A DNA stretch of 64,000 nucleotides, taken from contig CP084166.1 in the NCBI GenBank assembly GCA_021513695.1, positions 2,368,001 to 2,432,000 on the forward strand, given 5' to 3'. The notes under the pieces are model-generated. The model saw only the letters and a list, made by a program, of their open reading frames with translations, searched no databases and was not told the DNA's origin. Source of the DNA: Candidatus Heimdallarchaeum aukensis (GTDB lineage Archaea; Asgardarchaeota; Heimdallarchaeia; Heimdallarchaeales; Heimdallarchaeaceae). This document shows positions 13,786 to 22,554 of the stretch, piece after piece (positions within the stretch are counted from its first letter, which is position 1; each line of letters starts with the position of its first letter). Made by a program: the position numbers and the translations under genes.

Positions 13786-14214
13786 ATGCGTTGCCCCTAC
13801 TGTGGTTATCATAAAATAGTTAAGAAAGCAGATAAAAGATTAATCCATGAGTGTCCTAGATGTAAGTATCAATTTGAAGTCAGTTTTTCTAAAATGATGT
13901 TTGAGAAAATTTTTTCTATACCTTTTTCTTCAGTCATTGTCTTCTCGGTTATCCAAGTGATGTGTTTTTCTCTGTCACTTATTTCAAATGAATTTTTATC
14001 TAAATCTTTTTGGAATAGTTTCACTGTATTTAACGCTCTCTTTCTTGTAGTGCAGCTCTTTTTATATTTCATTTACGTAGAACCCAAACAGATTTTCCTA
14101 ATAAAAGATAAAGTGAGTTTTATACGTAAAATTGTCTATCTTTCCCCTTTCTTAAAAATCTCAATGTTAATAGTTGTCACAATAATTACTATTCAAATTA
14201 TAGTCATTAAATAA
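13786..14214 (+). CDS. Zinc-ribbon membrane protein, hypothetical
   Basis: N-terminal CPYCGY...CPRC zinc ribbon followed by 3-4 TM helices. ATG at 13786 is preferred over the TTG at 13744. Confidence 0.4.
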   Translation: MRCPYCGYHKIVKKADKRLIHECPRCKYQFEVSFSKMMFEKIFSIPFSSVIVFSVIQVMCFSLSLISNEFLSKSFWNSFTVFNALFLVVQLFLYFIYVEPKQIFLIKDKVSFIRKIVYLSPFLKISMLIVVTIITIQIIVIK

Positions 14215-14299
14215 AGAAATGGTGAAATGATTTTTTCATTTCTTACTTCTTGGAAAAAAAAGATTCAAAGTCCTTTAGAATTTGAGTTAGTAGTGACAC

Positions 14300-15067
14300 T
14301 TAACTCTTTATTCTTATTTTTATCCTCTTAGAGCACCAATTTATTATGCTTTTTGCAATAATAAACTTCTGAAATTTTTTGCCAATCTTCTCTTTCGTGA
14401 GAGTGTTTACTTTTGAGTATTTTCCTATTTTTTCTCCAAAGTCATACCCAAAAAGGATAACTTTTTTTATTTCTGAATTTACGGCAAAACAAACAGCTCT
14501 ATCACCATCTGTAAAACCTAAAAAATTTCTAAAATTTCCTAATTCTTCTGTTTGTGTTGAAAATAACACGTTTCCTGCCTTTATTAGTTTGGGTAGATAT
14601 TTCTTTGCTTGTTCAAGATTATCCCCGTGAATATGAACAATCATAGTAGAACCGAGTCTTTGGGCTTCTATTTGATCTTCTACGCAACCGTCTAAATCAG
14701 AAATAATAACTTCAGGAATCAGGTTCTGTTCTAATAAAAATGTTGTAGCCCCATCAACTGAAATAAGAACGGTGTTAGTAACATTTTTTGATTTTATTTC
14801 TTTAATTTTTTTTGCTGTTTCATTTGATAAACTATTTCCAGGGGCTATAATTATTGCTGTTTTTCTTTTTAATTCATTTACTAACTCTTCAACCCTTAAA
14901 TTAGGTTTGAATAAGTTATCAATATCCTTCACAGCATTTAAGTCGCTTTGTGGAGAAATATTTAGAAAATCACATATCGCAGGATACCAATGTTCTAGCC
15001 AAGTGGAAAGAGAAAAATCTAGTTTCTCAAGTTGAAGAAACAATGTATTTTCAGTCTTAAAAATCAT
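14300..15067 (-). CDS. DUF115 / MptE-like protein (archaeal 6-hydroxymethylpterin diphosphokinase family)
   Basis: Segments APGNSL ... ISDLDG ... HIHGDN resemble the MptE/Maf (PF01973) family. Recalled from memory, not searched. Confidence 0.45.
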   Translation of the reverse strand: MIFKTENTLFLQLEKLDFSLSTWLEHWYPAICDFLNISPQSDLNAVKDIDNLFKPNLRVEELVNELKRKTAIIIAPGNSLSNETAKKIKEIKSKNVTNTVLISVDGATTFLLEQNLIPEVIISDLDGCVEDQIEAQRLGSTMIVHIHGDNLEQAKKYLPKLIKAGNVLFSTQTEELGNFRNFLGFTDGDRAVCFAVNSEIKKVILFGYDFGEKIGKYSKVNTLTKEKIGKKFQKFIIAKSIINWCSKRIKIRIKS

Positions 15068-16832
15068 CTAAATCTTCCTTTGTTATCTTTCTTTTGCTCT
15101 CTAGCTTAAGAAGAGCAGTGTTATATCTACTAACTACATCATTGAAGTTTATAAAACCAATGACTTTCTTATCATTTTTTAAGGATACTACTGGCATCCC
15201 TTCAATATTATTGTCTTTTAACTTTGCGATGACTACTCTTAATGTATCACTTGGTTTAACGGTTATTACGTTTTCAGTCATTACTTCGTGAACATACTTT
15301 TTATTAGAAGAAAAACCTCTTGAGAAATCTGAACTCGCAATAATTCCAACAAGATTATCTTCTTCGTCAAAAACAGATATGGCTGAAACTTTGTGCAGAT
15401 ATAGTAGTGAAATTGTATTCTTAAGTAGGTCATTCTTTTTTACTTTGGGAAAAACAGTATCCATTGCTTCAGAAACTTTTATTCCTTCCAAGATGTCAGT
15501 ATTGCTTATTTTTTTCCTTAATATGACTTCTTTGCTTTGTACTTGTCCAGTATATAGACTGAAATCCATGGAAACTACAAAAGCTGCAGCATTTGATAGA
15601 ATTATTGGAATAACAAGAGAAGGAAATCCTAACATTTCTAAAACAATAAGCATAGATGCAATCGGAGTTTTTGTAGTGGCTGCATGCATTGCAGACATTC
15701 CTACTATAATAAATGCAATATAATTGACGCCAGGAAAGATCTTAGAATAAACAGCCCCCAAAACAGCTCCTGTTACTAGCGATGGACCCATGACTCCTCC
15801 AGATGCACCCATTCCAACACATGTGGAAGTAACAATAATTTTACCAAGAAAAAGAAGAAGTAGAATAGAAAAACCTATATTTTCACCTTTCTCTAAAAGA
15901 AAATTTATCGCTTGAAAACCTGTTCCTTGTAAAGATAGACCTTCTGGTAATCCTAAACTGAACAAAAAGACGATAAGAGCTGTAATTGTCATTCCAATAA
16001 AAGGGAGAATATATGACCATTTTATGTATCTATTAACTAAATTTGTAAGGGATTTATATAGTAATGAAAAACCTATTCCTGAAATTCCAGAAATAACTCC
16101 TAATAATAAGAACAAAAGAGAATTAACAATTGTAAGCTGTACTGGAGCTGTTTCAATATCTAAATAAACAGGGTGGGAGTTTAGTGCTGTCAAAATTGCC
16201 ATTGAAACTAAAAGAGAAATTGCACTTCCCAAAAGAGCAGGAAGAAATACTGTTTCATCAAGATCGTGTTTGTATGGAACTTCAGAAGCAAAAACTGTTC
16301 CACCTAAAGGAGAACGAAAAACTGCTGCAGTGCAAGCTGCTGCTCCTATTGTTATAGCATGTGTAGCATCATCTTGGTTGAATTTCATTTTTTCTCCTAA
16401 AGAATAAGCCATCGCTGCTCCTATTGTAACAGATGGTCCTTCTCTTCCTGCAGGAGCATTTACTCCCAAAGTGAGAAAACTTGCTACAAACTTTGACCAA
16501 ATAACTCGAATAGGAATTTTCTTTCCCGTGTTTTTATGTTCTAAAATATAGGAAATTCCTGCTCCTCGCACTTCATCAAACCCAAAATAAAGGAAGAGTG
16601 ATATTAATGCTCCAGTTAATGGAAAAGAAATCAAAATAGAAATTTGAGACAACCATTTTTGAGTATTAACTACAAGGCTTGCAAACAAACCCATTACAAC
16701 TCCACTTATAATACCAGTAATGATTGCAAAGGGAAACCATTTTTTGCTATATTTCCAATATTTGATAAAAACCTCTTTAAAATTCCTAAAAAATCTCTTA
16801 TTTTCTTTATCATTTATTGCTTTTTTTTTCAC
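15057..16832 (-). CDS. ClC family chloride channel/transporter with a C-terminal CBS pair
   Basis: GREGP selectivity motif (NAPAGREGPSVTIGAAMA). Several GxxxP/GG motifs, about 11 TM helices, C-terminal CBS domains. Confidence 0.8.
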   Translation of the reverse strand: MKKKAINDKENKRFFRNFKEVFIKYWKYSKKWFPFAIITGIISGVVMGLFASLVVNTQKWLSQISILISFPLTGALISLFLYFGFDEVRGAGISYILEHKNTGKKIPIRVIWSKFVASFLTLGVNAPAGREGPSVTIGAAMAYSLGEKMKFNQDDATHAITIGAAACTAAVFRSPLGGTVFASEVPYKHDLDETVFLPALLGSAISLLVSMAILTALNSHPVYLDIETAPVQLTIVNSLLFLLLGVISGISGIGFSLLYKSLTNLVNRYIKWSYILPFIGMTITALIVFLFSLGLPEGLSLQGTGFQAINFLLEKGENIGFSILLLLFLGKIIVTSTCVGMGASGGVMGPSLVTGAVLGAVYSKIFPGVNYIAFIIVGMSAMHAATTKTPIASMLIVLEMLGFPSLVIPIILSNAAAFVVSMDFSLYTGQVQSKEVILRKKISNTDILEGIKVSEAMDTVFPKVKKNDLLKNTISLLYLHKVSAISVFDEEDNLVGIIASSDFSRGFSSNKKYVHEVMTENVITVKPSDTLRVVIAKLKDNNIEGMPVVSLKNDKKVIGFINFNDVVSRYNTALLKLESKRKITKEDLDDF

Positions 16833-17031
16833 ACTTCTAACTTGAAAAGAACTCTTTTATTTTTTTCTCCATCTTATAGTTGAGAAAAATTTCTTCTTAA
16901 ATTCCTTTAGTTAGGAAAACAAATGTAAAATTGATAAACTATTATTATAAATATTTAATTATATATAACGATTAATAGTTATCTAAAATTTAATATATTT
17001 GCTTAAAATCGAGAGTTATAGGGGATTAGTG

Positions 17032-18804
17032 ATGAAATTGCGATTGCCACATGTGAATTTTAAGTTACCGAGTTATACAAAAAAATGGTTGCTATTAGAT
17101 GTATTAGGAATAATTATTGGTATTATTGGAGGGTTAGGAGCAGTATTCTTTCGTTTTATTTTAAAGTACCTCAAGATCTTCTTTTTTGATATCTTGTTAC
17201 CATTAGTTACAATAAATGTTGGTGGATTTAATTTAGGTTATATATTTCTTCCAATAATTGGGGCTTTAATTGTAGGGCCTGTTGTTATGTTTTTTGCTCC
17301 TGAAACTAAAGGACATGGTGTTCCTGAAGTGATGGAATCTGTAGCATTAAAAGGAGGGGAGATAAGAAAAAGAGTTGCTTTTCTAAAAGTGGCTGTTTCT
17401 TCTATAACTATCGGTTCTGGAGGCAGTGCGGGAAGAGAAGGACCAATTGCCCAAATAGGTGCAACACTTGGCTCATTCTTTGGAGGACTATTCAAACTTG
17501 ATCCACAACATAAAAAGCTGATGGTTGTTTGCGGTCTATCTGCTGGTATAGCTGGGACATTTAATGCTCCACTTGGCGGAGCGTTATTTGGAATGGAAGT
17601 GCTGTTGAGAGGAATAGGATTATTTAACGCAATGCCAGTAATTTTGTCTTCTGTAGTTTCTGTAGGTGTAGCTTCAGTGTTGATTCCGATAGCATTAGGT
17701 GAAGAAGTAGGACCTGCTTTTATTATAGATATAGCAACATCATGGAATCCTGCAGAACTGCCTTTATATATTGTTTTAGGAATAGTATTTGGATTATTGT
17801 CAATATTATGGGTAAAAGGATTCTACTTTATAGAGGATATTTTTGACAAACTAAAAATTTATCCTCATCTAAAACCAGCAATTGGAGCCTTTTTTACAGG
17901 ATTAATTATTGTCTTCTTCCCAACATATGGTATCGCTGGAGTTGGTTATGAAGGGATAGAACTTGCTCTTGTTGGAGAAATAACTTTGGGTTTATTAATA
18001 GCTCTAGGTTTTCTCAAAATTCTAGCAACAGGATTCTCAATTGGTTCGGGAGGAAGTGGAGGAATCTTTGCTCCTAGTTTATATATAGGCGCTATGTTTG
18101 GAACTGCAATAGGCATGGTTTTTAAATTAATTTTTCCAGGAACTGTGTCTAATTGGACAACATATTCATTAGCTGGTATGGGCGCTTTATTTGCAGGTGC
18201 AGCACAAGCTCCAATAAATGTAATAATAATGATTCCAGAGATGACCAACGATTATTTATTGATACCACCAATTGCTATTGCTTCATTCATCAGTTTTTTC
18301 ATTAATTGGATATTCATGAAAGGGACTTCAATTTACACAATAAAATTAGAAAGAAGAGGAGTTAAAATTAGAATGGGTAGTCCTTTCATTTTAGAATTAG
18401 TGAAAAACGAAGAAATAATGACAAAAGATGTGGTTACTCTCCAAGAAAAGTTTCCTGTTTCAATCCTAGAGCTATACTTTGAAGAACATCAACACCATGG
18501 ATATCCAGTGCTAAATGAAGAAAAGAAACTTGTGGGAGTTGTAACCTTGGGAGACTTGCAAAAGTTAGAAGAGGAAGAAAGAAAAAACAAAATCATTGGA
18601 GATATTTGTTCAAGAGAGCTTGTGACCGTTAAAGCAGAAGAAACAGTCTCTGAAGCTTTAAGAAAAATGAATGAGTTTGATATTGGTAGAGTAATTGTTG
18701 TAGATAGTGAAGACCCTAATAAAATAAAAGGAATAGTTACGAGAACTGATATAATGAATGCTTATCGTATTGCTTCACAAAACCCGGCACTTACAACACT
18801 TTAA
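17032..18804 (+). CDS. ClC family chloride channel/transporter with a C-terminal CBS pair (second, divergent copy)
   Basis: GSGGSAGREGPIAQIG, GGIFAPSLYIGAMFG, C-terminal CBS pair. ATG at 17032 follows an AGGGGA SD-like motif; the track start is a TTG at 16999. Confidence 0.8.
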   Translation: MKLRLPHVNFKLPSYTKKWLLLDVLGIIIGIIGGLGAVFFRFILKYLKIFFFDILLPLVTINVGGFNLGYIFLPIIGALIVGPVVMFFAPETKGHGVPEVMESVALKGGEIRKRVAFLKVAVSSITIGSGGSAGREGPIAQIGATLGSFFGGLFKLDPQHKKLMVVCGLSAGIAGTFNAPLGGALFGMEVLLRGIGLFNAMPVILSSVVSVGVASVLIPIALGEEVGPAFIIDIATSWNPAELPLYIVLGIVFGLLSILWVKGFYFIEDIFDKLKIYPHLKPAIGAFFTGLIIVFFPTYGIAGVGYEGIELALVGEITLGLLIALGFLKILATGFSIGSGGSGGIFAPSLYIGAMFGTAIGMVFKLIFPGTVSNWTTYSLAGMGALFAGAAQAPINVIIMIPEMTNDYLLIPPIAIASFISFFINWIFMKGTSIYTIKLERRGVKIRMGSPFILELVKNEEIMTKDVVTLQEKFPVSILELYFEEHQHHGYPVLNEEKKLVGVVTLGDLQKLEEEERKNKIIGDICSRELVTVKAEETVSEALRKMNEFDIGRVIVVDSEDPNKIKGIVTRTDIMNAYRIASQNPALTTL

Positions 18805-18874
18805 TAACTTTTTTCTCTTTTTTCTTGAAAAAGCATAATCTTGAAAAGGTAAAAAAAGAAAAGAATAATAGGCA

Positions 18875-21037
18875 ATGCAGTATAAGAAAAAAACTTTCTA
18901 TTGTTTGTTATTTATTGGGGTTATATTTACAACTTTGTTCTTGTATCTATACCCATTCAATTCTAAAATAACTTTTGTAAGTGATTATAAAGATTATACA
19001 TATTCATCTAATATTGAGATAGTAAAACAAGATTACACAGAGGATTTTGATAGAGAAATAAGTTTATCAGATTTTCTTACTTATTCAATTGAACCTTATG
19101 TTCTTGATTTTGAAAAAGATCAATCATTCGAATTTTTTGTTATCTCAAATCGTTATAATGAAACTGAAGGAAATAAATTATTTTTACTAAAAGATGCTAG
19201 TATTATGCCTAACTGGCCAATTCAACTAGATGTGGATATTGAGGATGTAGTAGGTCAAGAGACTTATGATAACGAACAAATTGTAATAGTAAGAGCTAAA
19301 GATAAGAATAGTATCAATCAAACCTTATTTTATGGCATAAATAAAAATGGAGACGTGATCAGTTCATTTACAAAAGTAGTAGGAGAAACATTTAGTGGAG
19401 ATACTTTATTTGGTGACATTGATGAGGACGGTCTAAATGAATTTGTGATACATAGTAACTATCAGGTCTTTGTGTATGAAGATGATTTTACATTAAAAGA
19501 GAATTGGCCAAAAGAAACAAATGAGACAATCTTTTCAGAAATTGTTGTGGAAGATGTAAATTTAGATGGAAGAAAGGATATTGTAACCCTAACTGAGCAA
19601 GGACTAATCTTTGTATGGGATTGGAATGGAACATTGTTAAGTCACTTTACTAAAAGGATTGATCTTCTATATTACAAAAATGGGGAAGGATTTAGAGTCA
19701 TGCCCATAGTGACAGACAGTAATAAGGATGGAGTAGTAGAGATTTTCGCTTCATCAACCTTTGGTTATCTCTATTGTCTAGAACTATCTAAAGCAAAAAC
19801 AAGCACTTATTATCAAAAATTACCTAATGCTATTTATAGTTTAAATCAAGCTACTGCTAGCGATATAAACAAGGATGGACTAATTGATATCATACAACCT
19901 TTCTCCGATGGTTTTTATATTTTTAATTTTAATAAAAGCTTGGAAGTTAAGACAAAAGTAGAAGGGTCTTATTCTTTCACGGGAGCTCCTGTACTAGCAG
20001 ATATAAACAAAGATAATACACTGGAACTAATTTTTGTTTCCGACTATCGTTTACTAGTTTTCAATTATACTGGGGTTGAAAATCAAAATTATGAAAGATC
20101 AATCCCCTATGCTTATAGTAATGGAATTTCACCTATTGTATTTGATAGTGATAGTGATAGTGAGATTGAGATAGTCTATTTAAATAATTATGGAAAAATA
20201 AAAATATTCGAAACAAATGATTTTGGATTGCTTCCATGGTTGTTCAAGTATTCTTCTCCTCTACATTCTGTTAATAATGACTATGATAGTGATGGATTGT
20301 TAAATTATGAAGAAGAAATAGTAGGCAGCGACCCTCTAAACTCTGACAGCGATTCTGATACAGTTTATGATGGAGAAGAAGTTAATCAATATGTGATGAA
20401 TCCTATTATTGCTGATTTATCTTTAGATAGTGATGAAGACAATTTAACTAATATTGAAGAAGTAGACATTTATTTAACAAATCCGTTAAATCCAGACAGT
20501 GATTTTGACGGGTTAAAAGATGGAGAGGAAGTACTTATTTATTCAACGAACCCATTATCTATTGATTCAGACGAAGATGGGTTGCCAGATTCTTTTGAAG
20601 TAGAATATACTTTTTTAGATCCAAATGATGCTGATGATGCTCAGTTAGATTATGATGGAGATAATTTGTCAAATTTAGAAGAATACCTTTATGGAACTGA
20701 TCCAAGTAATCCTGATACTGATTCCGATACTCTTTCTGATGGAGATGAAATTTATAGATACTTTACGAATCCTATAGTTCCTGATGCTGATGCTGATTAT
20801 GATGGAGATGGCTTAACCAATGTTGAAGAAGTAGATATTTATCATACTGACCCATCTTCAGCAGATAGCGATGGTGATGGAATAAATGATGGTGAAGAAA
20901 TAGAAAAGGGGTCAGACCCTAATGATCCACAAAGTATACCTAAAACATCAAAAATTCATTTTGATACATTTTTCATGGTAATTTCACTTTTTTCTCTAAT
21001 CTTTGTAATTACTTTAGTAAAAAGGGCAAGGAATTAA
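18875..21037 (+). CDS. Integrin-like surface protein with an N-terminal signal anchor, FG-GAP/beta-propeller repeats, thrombospondin type 3-like Ca-binding repeats and a C-terminal TM anchor
   Basis: Repeated D-x-[DN]-x-D-G-x-x-[DE] units (DIDEDGLNEFVI, DVNLDGRKDIVT, DSNKDGVVEIFA, DINKDGLIDIIQ). C-terminal D-x-D-x-D-G-x-x-D-G-E-E repeats (DSDFDGLKDGEEV, DSDEDGLPDSFEV, DSDGDGINDGEEI). Ends with a TM helix + KRARN. Confidence 0.6.
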   Translation: MQYKKKTFYCLLFIGVIFTTLFLYLYPFNSKITFVSDYKDYTYSSNIEIVKQDYTEDFDREISLSDFLTYSIEPYVLDFEKDQSFEFFVISNRYNETEGNKLFLLKDASIMPNWPIQLDVDIEDVVGQETYDNEQIVIVRAKDKNSINQTLFYGINKNGDVISSFTKVVGETFSGDTLFGDIDEDGLNEFVIHSNYQVFVYEDDFTLKENWPKETNETIFSEIVVEDVNLDGRKDIVTLTEQGLIFVWDWNGTLLSHFTKRIDLLYYKNGEGFRVMPIVTDSNKDGVVEIFASSTFGYLYCLELSKAKTSTYYQKLPNAIYSLNQATASDINKDGLIDIIQPFSDGFYIFNFNKSLEVKTKVEGSYSFTGAPVLADINKDNTLELIFVSDYRLLVFNYTGVENQNYERSIPYAYSNGISPIVFDSDSDSEIEIVYLNNYGKIKIFETNDFGLLPWLFKYSSPLHSVNNDYDSDGLLNYEEEIVGSDPLNSDSDSDTVYDGEEVNQYVMNPIIADLSLDSDEDNLTNIEEVDIYLTNPLNPDSDFDGLKDGEEVLIYSTNPLSIDSDEDGLPDSFEVEYTFLDPNDADDAQLDYDGDNLSNLEEYLYGTDPSNPDTDSDTLSDGDEIYRYFTNPIVPDADADYDGDGLTNVEEVDIYHTDPSSADSDGDGINDGEEIEKGSDPNDPQSIPKTSKIHFDTFFMVISLFSLIFVITLVKRARN

Positions 21038-21047
21038 AAAAATCAAC

Positions 21048-21530
21048 TTAAAATTCCCAAATGTAAGTAACTCCTTGTCCATCATCTTCACAAACAGAAA
21101 CCTTTAAGCTTTTAATGTTTTTTTCGTTGAATTTTTTTTCTTTTATCAATAACTCTGTAAAATATCTACTTAGTTCTTCAACTGTAGTATTTTCAATAGG
21201 TAAAATTTTAACATCCTCTTTTGGGATTTCATATTCTTTATCTAATCTAGGCACTTTAATGATTACTTGTTTATCTGTTTCAATAATCTCTAGATGTTTA
21301 TTATACCTCGGTAAAATGAGGTGATGATCAAGTGAATCAACAACGGGTTGAACTATTCTCTTTATATCATAAAAATTGACCACCATATTGTCTTTAGATT
21401 GCTGTCCAACAATATTTACTTGAACAGTATAATTGTGTCCATGTAATTTTTCAAAAAAGCTTTCTCCAATAACAATATGAGAGCAAGAAAATATGAAATA
21501 CTCCCTGGATAAAAACAAATCATAGCTCAT
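21048..21530 (-). CDS. 6-pyruvoyl-tetrahydropterin synthase / QueD-like (PTPS family)
   Basis: C-x3-H-G-H-x-Y-containing segment CSHIVIGESFFEKLHGHNYTV. Size 160 aa. Confidence 0.55.
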   Translation of the reverse strand: MSYDLFLSREYFIFSCSHIVIGESFFEKLHGHNYTVQVNIVGQQSKDNMVVNFYDIKRIVQPVVDSLDHHLILPRYNKHLEIIETDKQVIIKVPRLDKEYEIPKEDVKILPIENTTVEELSRYFTELLIKEKKFNEKNIKSLKVSVCEDDGQGVTYIWEF

Positions 21531-21612: not shown

Positions 21613-22554
21613 TTATAATTCTGCAGATGATAATATTATATTTTCAAGTTCTTGGATTTCTAAGTCAATATCAACTAAAAAAACTAAAAATTCTGACATT
21701 ATTGATGCTAGTTCATTTCTCAACTCTTTTCCAAGTTTTATTAGTTCTTCAACAGAGGAAATATCATCTAAACCCCATGAAAGAACATCACATAATCTTC
21801 CAAGTTGTTCGTCAGGTATTTTCTCTTCTTCTTTTGCTTTACTGTTAGTTGAAATTTGAGAAAGAATTTTTTCTGCAGTATTAATTTCATCTTCAAAAAC
21901 AGTGGTCAATGGATTTATACTCATATCTAACAATTCACGCAAAATCATCTGGGCTTTATCCCCAAGTTCAGCAGCCTGAAAGGAAAGATCTGTTATTTCT
22001 TCTACTTGCTCCTTTTGGAGTTGCACAATTTCATTAGGTTCTGCAAAAAATTTCTGAATATATTCTCTGTTCTTTTCATTAACTAATGATATTTGTTGTC
22101 TAAAACTGGAAGATTCTTCAGACTCTGAAGAGAGGAGAAAATAAATTTCTTGCCATTTACTGTTTAACTTTTCCTTGGTTAAAAACAAGTCCTTTGCTTT
22201 TTCCAAAACATTAATTATTTTCTCTATGATAGCTTCTTTTTCTATCAAACCTTTTGTACGTGCACGAGAAACTTCCTCATTAAATTCTCTGGAAACACTT
22301 TCATTTCCTCGAAGATTCTCTATAAGAGAACTCTGATAATATGTTCTCGCGAGAGAAGCCATAAGTGAAAGAAGCGATGAGCGCAAAGAAAAAAGTGATC
22401 CTTCATCTGAACTCAAAAAAATATCTATATGCTCAAATAAAGAACCCATTTTTTTATATAGTTTACGTATTGGCCTGTAGTTTAAATTGTCGAGAAATTT
22501 ACCTAGTAAGGTCTGTCTCTCTAGAACAGTATCAGTATAATTATGCATTGTCAT
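21613..22554 (-). CDS. Acidic coiled-coil hypothetical protein
   Basis: 313 aa, E/L/K-rich heptad-like sequence. No catalytic motif. Confidence 0.4.
   Translation of the reverse strand: MTMHNYTDTVLERQTLLGKFLDNLNYRPIRKLYKKMGSLFEHIDIFLSSDEGSLFSLRSSLLSLMASLARTYYQSSLIENLRGNESVSREFNEEVSRARTKGLIEKEAIIEKIINVLEKAKDLFLTKEKLNSKWQEIYFLLSSESEESSSFRQQISLVNEKNREYIQKFFAEPNEIVQLQKEQVEEITDLSFQAAELGDKAQMILRELLDMSINPLTTVFEDEINTAEKILSQISTNSKAKEEEKIPDEQLGRLCDVLSWGLDDISSVEELIKLGKELRNELASIMSEFLVFLVDIDLEIQELENIILSSAEL

Follow-up and report, generated by a model that had tools for sequence, protein, structure and literature searches.

Among known archaea, the Asgard group, and Heimdallarchaeia especially, stands closest to eukaryotes, and one gene of Candidatus Heimdallarchaeum aukensis raises the question of whether such an archaeon carries a surface protein of the integrin or thrombospondin kind. 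The gene lies in a 64,000 nt stretch of contig CP084166.1 (positions 2,368,001 to 2,432,000, here called the window) at 18875..21037 on the forward strand. It encodes 720 aa followed by a stop codon, its ATG being the first possible start 3′ of the upstream stop. The low G+C content (~31%) fits an origin in Heimdallarchaeaceae. A first-pass annotation had described the product as an integrin-like protein, anchored at both ends, that combines two eukaryote-style extracellular modules. The open reading frame (ORF) and all the sequence features listed in that annotation exist. The product is 100% identical to the hypothetical protein K9W45_10675 of Ca. H. aukensis, which already bears the name FG-GAP repeat protein in UniRef, and the genome paper (PMC8813620) mentions neither this protein nor surface or adhesion proteins.

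We found that K9W45_10675 belongs to a family that is restricted to Heimdallarchaeaceae and defined by an eight-bladed propeller, nine thrombospondin type 3 (TSP3) repeats and a transmembrane (TM) anchor. This family is neither integrin-type nor thrombospondin-type in the eukaryotic sense, and TSP3-plus-TM is recognized here as a general Asgard stalk and anchor. These points are new; both modules and their automated Pfam assignment were already known.

The head of the protein, aa 55-462 (19037..20260, +), was assigned to an eight-bladed beta-propeller of the FG-GAP_3/VCBS type by Pfam, AlphaFold2 and repeat alignment. FG-GAP_3 scored 43.6 bits against a gathering cut-off of 26.9 and matched in five stretches. 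The N-terminal half contains six loops of the pattern D-x-[DNS]-x-[DN]-x3-[DE]-hydrophobic, at aa 181, 227, 281, 330, 376 and 424, plus a seventh, degenerate one at aa 78-86, which bears out the at least five FG-GAP-type repeats that had been claimed; Gly occupies position 6 in only four of the six canonical loops. When the sequence was cut at the metal loops, it fell into eight mutually alignable repeats of 41-55 residues, the blades starting at about aa 71, 119, 174, 220, 274, 323, 369 and 417. Blade 2 has no metal loop in this protein, and a 'DLNNGT' remnant is kept there in orthologues. The Asp/Asn/Glu ligand positions of the propeller loops are invariant or nearly so among 15-35 orthologues. 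The Pfam score, the blade repeats with their Asp-rich loop and the propeller fold together place the head in the FG-GAP_3/VCBS superfamily (PF13517). This supercluster, which consists mostly of secreted prokaryotic proteins, is recognized by its DxDxDG loop between strands A and B, and in integrin and PVL-type blades that loop serves as the Ca2+ site (PMC8023676). Judging from their ligand residues, the loops of the present propeller are expected to hold Ca2+ structurally.

The AlphaFold2 model, built from a 35-sequence alignment, is confident (pLDDT 81.9, pTM 0.71). It places eight beta-strand groups in aa 60-450, nine units of a loop plus a short helix in aa 465-690, and a terminal helix in aa 696-719. 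Since the propeller is confidently predicted and the Pfam scan of the protein found no dockerin, cadherin or EF-hand family, the repeats do not revert to the generic Ca-binding types that the first-pass annotation had named as the alternative. Two further Pfam matches were set aside: Binary_toxB (E 3.6e-4, below cut-off) was taken as generic Ca-loop similarity and STT3_PglB_C (E 0.07) as noise.

Between the propeller and the membrane helix, aa 463-690 (20261..20944, +) consist of nine bacterial-type TSP3 repeats according to Pfam, the repeat motif and AlphaFold2. The Pfam model TSP3_bac scored 58.4 bits against a gathering cut-off of 25. The nine D-x-D-x-D-x3-[DN]-x2-E units start at aa 469, 491, 518, 541, 564, 592, 614, 641 and 664; the repeats reported as 'about 8' are thus real, and their number is nine. 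Each unit follows the pattern D-x-D-x-D-G-x-x-[DN]-x-E-E, short helix, T-[ND]-P, and is an EF-hand-like 12-residue loop with an exiting helix. Units of the 'N-x-E-E' and 'D-G-E-E' types alternate, with one 'G-L-P-D' type in the middle of the array, and a conserved cap, GSDPxDPxS-I-P-K, closes it. The EF-hand-like ligand pattern (positions 1, 3, 5, 9 and 12) is invariant across orthologues, and from this pattern we infer that the repeats bind Ca2+.

Neither set of motifs arises from an Asp-rich composition by chance. We shuffled each region while preserving its composition (5000 times for the propeller region): the propeller-loop motif, present six times, was found 0.23 times on average and at most three times, and the TSP3 unit, present nine times, 0.05 times on average and at most twice. 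As the shuffled sequences gave far fewer motifs, both kinds of repeat are far beyond chance even given the composition.

If the head is a Ca-loop FG-GAP propeller, is it that of an integrin? The likeness to integrin alpha extends to a type I topology, an extracellular position and a head with DxDxDG Ca2+ loops, and one explanation would make the protein a true archaeal homologue or forerunner of integrin alpha, or of ITFG1/ITFG2-type FG-GAP proteins, and hence a eukaryotic signature protein (ESP). The host, from the Asgard clade closest to eukaryotes (PMC8813620), fits such a descent, and so do the weak matches of the propeller profile to the eukaryotic FG-GAP proteins CRTAC1 (E 3.9e-4) and ITFG2 (E 3e-3) and the presence of ITFG2 and BBSome propellers among the top Foldseek matches. 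Asgard genomes are also reported to have 'integrin repeat-containing ESPs' on record (PMC9258230, which cites Liu et al., 2021); this report is a secondary citation, and the word 'integrin' is absent from the text of the Liu et al. preprint. However, the propeller of integrin alpha is seven-bladed and bears Ca sites only in its last three or four blades, whereas the present propeller is predicted by repeat alignment and model to have eight and is not of the integrin type. When the propeller profile was compared with all PDB chains, the best match was bacterial, V. cholerae Bap1 (E 1e-6), and no integrin was found at E<=10; nor did any comparison return a sequence or structural match to an integrin alpha chain. 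The thigh/calf Ig-like leg and the GFFKR tail of integrins have no counterpart, and no gene for their obligate beta subunit was seen among the scanned neighbours: Integrin_alpha2 (thigh, calf-1/calf-2) gave no Pfam match at E<=1, the region from propeller to TM helix being TSP3 repeats throughout, and GFFKR is absent from the KRARN tail of this protein as from the short basic tails of its orthologues. Moreover, prokaryotic metagenomes contain tens of thousands of relatives at the level of single blades, while the colinear family is confined to Heimdallarchaeaceae. Homology to integrin alpha is therefore extremely improbable, and the label 'integrin-like' has to be dropped.

The closest structural matches of the model are instead the eight-bladed BamB, YxaL and Bap1. 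Bap1/RbmC (PDB 6mlt) shares with the present protein an eight-bladed metal-binding propeller at ~14% identity. Bap1 is secreted, lacks a TSP3 array and has a beta-prism lectin domain inserted in its propeller, whereas the archaeal protein is membrane-anchored with TSP3 repeats, and neither the AlphaFold2 model nor Pfam reveals an insert domain in its propeller. BamB and YxaL, which act in bacterial periplasmic or secreted contexts, resemble it in their eight-bladed structure but show no significant sequence similarity, and to our knowledge their propellers lack DxDxDG metal loops. A phmmer search of PDB with the single sequence returned one match only, SCO1/SenC (E 0.013), which we judged spurious.

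The second comparison with eukaryotes fares no better. Eukaryotic thrombospondin and COMP share with the array a tandem Asp-rich DxDxDGxxDxxD-type Ca2+-binding motif. However, eukaryotic TSP type 3 repeats are disulfide-knotted and followed by the TSP C-terminal lectin-like domain, whereas aa 461-690 contain no Cys (Asp+Glu, 30%) and no TSP_C domain follows. Pfam gave no TSP_3 or TSP_C match at E<=1, and the TSP3 profile matched no thrombospondin or COMP chain in PDB at E<=10. It did match S. aureus Bap, in which two repeats correspond to those of the array (chain 7c7u, E 4e-5), and, weakly, the Ca-binding domain of C2 toxin and an OmpA-family protein. Bacterial TSP3 arrays (PF18884; CglD/MtsD, OmpA-family proteins and S. 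aureus Bap) consist of the same Cys-free repeat of 22-23 residues, D-x-D-x-D-G-x-x-D-x-x-E, and in NCBIfam the TSP3 part partially matched the Myxococcus adhesins CglD and MtsD, far under threshold. The partner domains differ: CglD is a lipoprotein with a VWA/beta-integrin-like domain and the OmpA proteins bind peptidoglycan, whereas here the array sits directly between propeller and TM helix with a fixed count of nine. A bacterial TSP3 model, the lack of Cys and of any TSP/COMP match, and the very wide occurrence of both modules in prokaryotes do not bear out the view that they are eukaryote-style and notable in an archaeon.

How far the family extends was examined with an exhaustive HMMER profile search of 1.84 billion representative proteins. 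The propeller profile matched 34,368 proteins at E<=0.001, yet a colinear match over the whole propeller was confined to about five clusters at 50% identity; the remainder were multi-stretch matches of single blades in large repeat proteins. A word-indexed search with the propeller alone returned six matches and missed known orthologues, and the profile search was used in its place. When prokaryotic species were scanned, each represented by a single genome, ten loci were found, labelled Heimdallarchaeota (eight), 'Promethearchaeati' (one) and 'Thorarchaeota' (one). Colinear orthologues were found only in Heimdallarchaeaceae-type genomes, with conserved synteny and one syntenic orthologue per locus wherever found.

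Fifteen orthologues, only ~40% identical overall, differ markedly in conservation along their length. Mean identity is 62% in the TSP3 array, 34% in the propeller and 19% in the TM segment. The array is 228 aa long in 14 of the 15 and 229 aa in the other, so the number of repeats does not vary among relatives, a comparison that the first-pass annotation had proposed. Two sequons in the propeller are conserved as well, N251-G-[ST] in 15/15 orthologues and N216-x-[ST] in 13/15, a sequence pattern consistent with N-glycosylation outside the cell.

The same invariance applies to a hexanucleotide tract that had been suspected of varying in length. Tandem Repeats Finder located TGATAG x3.5 at 20143..20163 (+), read in frame as GAT AGT GAT AGT GAT AGT GAG and encoding DSDSDSE (aa 424-430). 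The tract is real and does encode the DSDSDS noted earlier; it forms the metal loop of blade 8, the last of the propeller, and lies outside the TSP3 array. The 83%-identical orthologue has the same DNA sequence with the same copy number, D424, D426, D428 and E432 are invariant, and none of the 15 orthologues has an indel at this position. Nothing supports a length-variable contingency tract, and the repeat looks like a by-product of writing D-S-D-S-D-S in the preferred codons of an AT-rich genome. The gene contains a second, short hexanucleotide repeat, CTGATG x2.8 at 20781-20797. The P-D-A-D-A-D that it encodes joins TSP3 units 7 and 8, in a region without length variation among orthologues.

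The Kyte-Doolittle profile has two hydrophobic segments, aa 5-29 and 693-719. The first belongs to a putative Sec-type signal at aa 1-29 (18875..18961, +), made of MQYKKK and a 22-residue uncharged segment and followed by a poorly conserved, low-confidence linker up to about aa 54. Orthologues mostly have an uncharged run of 13-19 residues and then a polar stretch with small residues (...NVGTGA/VQ, ...KQLSA/DS), typical in sequence of a cleavable signal peptide. The run reaches 22 residues only in this protein and is 17 residues long in the 83% orthologue, which leaves the choice between signal peptide and signal anchor ambiguous in the present sequence. Cys10 had been considered as part of a lipobox, but a lipoprotein was ruled out, the Cys not being conserved in orthologues. 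The C-terminal TM helix (aa ~696-716), with its short basic tail KRARN (20945..21034, +), is kept in every orthologue. Of the two proposed anchors, the C-terminal one is thus supported, and the N-terminal one is unproven because the orthologous N-termini look like cleavable signal peptides. Taken together, the members of the family have the look of type I membrane proteins.

Is the C-terminal helix a lasting anchor? A conserved motif, then a hydrophobic helix and last a cluster of basic residues at the very end of the chain make up the tripartite layout of an archaeosortase/PGF-CTERM-like sorting signal, in which S-I-P-K (S687 and P689 are invariant) would be the recognition motif and the segment would be cleaved for attachment of a lipid anchor. 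However, the NCBIfam sorting-signal models gave no match at E<=1, no archaeosortase gene was found among the scanned neighbours in the window or in syntenic loci, and paralogous Asgard proteins with the same cap and helix carry cytoplasmic tails of hundreds of residues, which a C-terminal sorting signal would not allow. We consider cleavage of this kind highly improbable, less likely than either the anchored surface protein or the envelope scaffold discussed below.

Many such Asgard proteins share the entire C-terminal module, in which a TSP3 array leads through a 'DPLxxxSxP'-like cap to a TM helix with basic residues, under unrelated heads: a caspase, a right-handed beta-helix, LVIVD and one unassigned N-terminal domain. 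They include P0111, encoded in the same genome, and P0027, P0030, P0043, P0085 and P0108. In several of them, including P0111, a cytoplasmic tail of hundreds of residues follows the helix; some of these tails are coiled-coil-like or contain a zinc ribbon. As the sister modules run on into long cytoplasmic tails, the C-terminal helix is best taken as a true membrane anchor, and as the same module sits under unrelated heads, the TSP3 array is best taken as a generic stalk. Array and helix together look like a general Asgard stalk-and-anchor cassette.

What, then, does the protein do? We think it rather probable that it is a Ca2+-dependent, type I-anchored surface protein whose eight-bladed head binds a ligand, that is, an adhesin or a non-signalling receptor. 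The Sec signal would direct export and the chain would lie with its N-terminus out and its C-terminus in. The distal head would be the propeller, with structural Ca2+ in its six canonical loops and the degenerate one, and the acidic nine-repeat array would act as a Ca2+-stiffened spacer of fixed length that lifts the head above the membrane, in which the single C-terminal helix and a basic tail of 5-10 residues would hold the protein. The head may then bind an extracellular ligand in a Ca2+-dependent manner, either a glycan, an exopolymer or a component of the matrix, or else a protein on the surface of another cell. Ligand binding is suggested by analogy with the eight-bladed Bap1/RbmC propeller of V. 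cholerae, the closest characterized relative, where the exopolysaccharide of Vibrio is bound and an induced Mg2+ site takes part (bioRxiv 10.64898/2026.08.03.742583). TSP3-type repeats also occur in CglD, a surface adhesin of Myxococcus, where they are associated with adhesion and gliding that depend on Ca2+; CglD is needed for this gliding (bioRxiv 10.1101/2023.10.19.562135).

Two observations weigh against an adhesin or receptor. The family is single-copy, syntenic and invariant in length across genomes at ~40% identity, which is more typical of a conserved housekeeping component of the envelope than of a fast-evolving adhesin; and the cytoplasmic tail is too short for signalling.

The main rival takes up the first of these points and regards the protein as a coat or scaffold of the Asgard envelope, whose propeller would organize envelope proteins in the manner of BamB/YxaL while the TSP3 array sets the distance from the membrane. 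One relative is labelled 'BamB family' by NCBI and several orthologues have PQQ-like Pfam matches; the single syntenic orthologue per locus and the invariant stalk length suit a scaffold, and a small membrane protein adjoins the gene in most loci. On the other hand, the BAM machinery is absent from archaea, Pfam found no PQQ family in the present protein, its motifs are of the FG-GAP/VCBS Ca-loop type and its best sequence match is the adhesin Bap1. We know of no ordered S-layer in Asgard archaea, and this too counts against a scaffold, which we regard as rather unlikely.

Catalysis by the propeller offers a further explanation, a membrane-tethered polysaccharide-degrading enzyme modelled on PL11 rhamnogalacturonan lyases or the lambda-carrageenase propeller. 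RGL11 lyases are eight-bladed, which speaks for it. Pfam Beta-prop_CGLA reached 26.6 bits, marginally below its cut-off of 26.8, but this match spans 71/316 model positions, or about two blades, and no catalytic motif is identifiable. RGL11 lyases also belong to the VCBS supercluster (PMC8023676), and a gene for a solute-binding protein of the peptide/oligosaccharide type (SBP_bac_5) is syntenic with the propeller gene; the other neighbours, chloride channels, pterin enzymes and NUDIX, provide no polysaccharide-utilization context. An enzyme is very unlikely and, like the integrin homologue, less likely than a ligand-binding surface protein or an envelope scaffold.

The conserved gene order across loci is a gene for an unknown 313-aa protein (+), PTPS (+), MptE (-), CLC (-), the propeller gene (+), an ORF for a zinc-ribbon multi-TM protein (+) and SBP_bac_5 (-). 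The zinc-ribbon protein is small and has no Pfam match; its zinc ribbon (CPYCG...CPRC) is N-terminal, and hydrophobic helices come after it. Outside the aukensis clade its ORF is the next one downstream of the propeller gene, and the two abut or overlap, in all loci where the downstream flank is covered (e.g. L001:10175-10609, with an overlap of 4 nt, and L003:10187-10624). This block has been rearranged in the window and in L005, a close relative: the zinc-ribbon ORF (13786..14214, +) lies 4.6 kb from the propeller gene, and a second CLC gene stands upstream of the latter.

From its position the zinc-ribbon protein is a possible partner of the propeller protein, and the two might form a lineage-specific, two-subunit adhesion receptor with an extracellular Ca2+-propeller subunit for binding to the matrix or a partner cell and a zinc-ribbon subunit for coupling the binding to the cytoplasm. 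If true, outside-in integrin signalling would have a prokaryotic analogue, not homologous to it, in that clade of archaea which is nearest to eukaryotes. We see this as a speculative and quite unlikely extension of the anchored surface protein. The pairing is not obligatory, and adjacency is broken in the window. Synteny was mostly rejected as functional evidence: the seven syntenic genes are unrelated in function, so their order mainly reflects common descent, and the close pairing with the zinc-ribbon ORF is its one suggestive element. A VWA gene, as expected for an integrin-type beta subunit with a VWA/betaI domain, was found neither among the ten neighbours scanned nor in the syntenic loci, the only parts of the genome searched for it.

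The rest of the neighbourhood records rearrangement and suggests gene decay around the propeller gene. Two divergently transcribed genes for CLC chloride channels with CBS domains occupy 15057-16832 (-) and 16999-18804 (+) in the window; their products are only ~27% identical to each other. The second gene, CLC_b, occurs only in the window, L005 and L015. CLC_a is present only as a fragment of 86-142 aa in L001, L006, L011, L012 and L014, and as no more than fragments are detectable there, its decay in those lineages is suggested. The gap of 70 bp between the upstream CLC gene and the propeller gene holds a T-rich direct repeat, CTTTTTTCT x2, at 18808-18825, directly 3′ of the CLC stop codon. 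It resembles an oligo-T terminator of the archaeal kind; if it is one, the propeller gene would have a promoter of its own. An Rfam scan of the whole window gave no match.

The genes for the MptE-like 6-hydroxymethylpterin diphosphokinase (14300-15067, -) and PTPS (21048-21530, -) flank the CLC/propeller block here. They are adjacent and convergent in other Heimdallarchaeal loci, and their separation is the sign of a local rearrangement peculiar to the clade of H. aukensis. PTPS is adjoined by the gene for the 313-aa protein (21613-22554, -), which is rich in Ser, Glu and Leu and has no Pfam match; this arrangement is found in all Heimdallarchaeal loci examined, at 52-54% identity. The AB_125-type locus L001 also encodes a small GTPase of the Arf/Ras family, a typical Asgard ESP, at 14178-14924 (-), ~4 kb downstream of the propeller gene.

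Models of eukaryogenesis hinge on contact between an archaeal host and a bacterial partner, and the surface proteins of Asgard archaea are barely known. The modules described here are common prokaryotic extracellular ones and give no indication that integrins or thrombospondins arose in archaea. The family and its stalk-and-anchor module are nevertheless concrete targets for localization, for ligand screening and for assignment by cryo-electron tomography in enrichment cultures.

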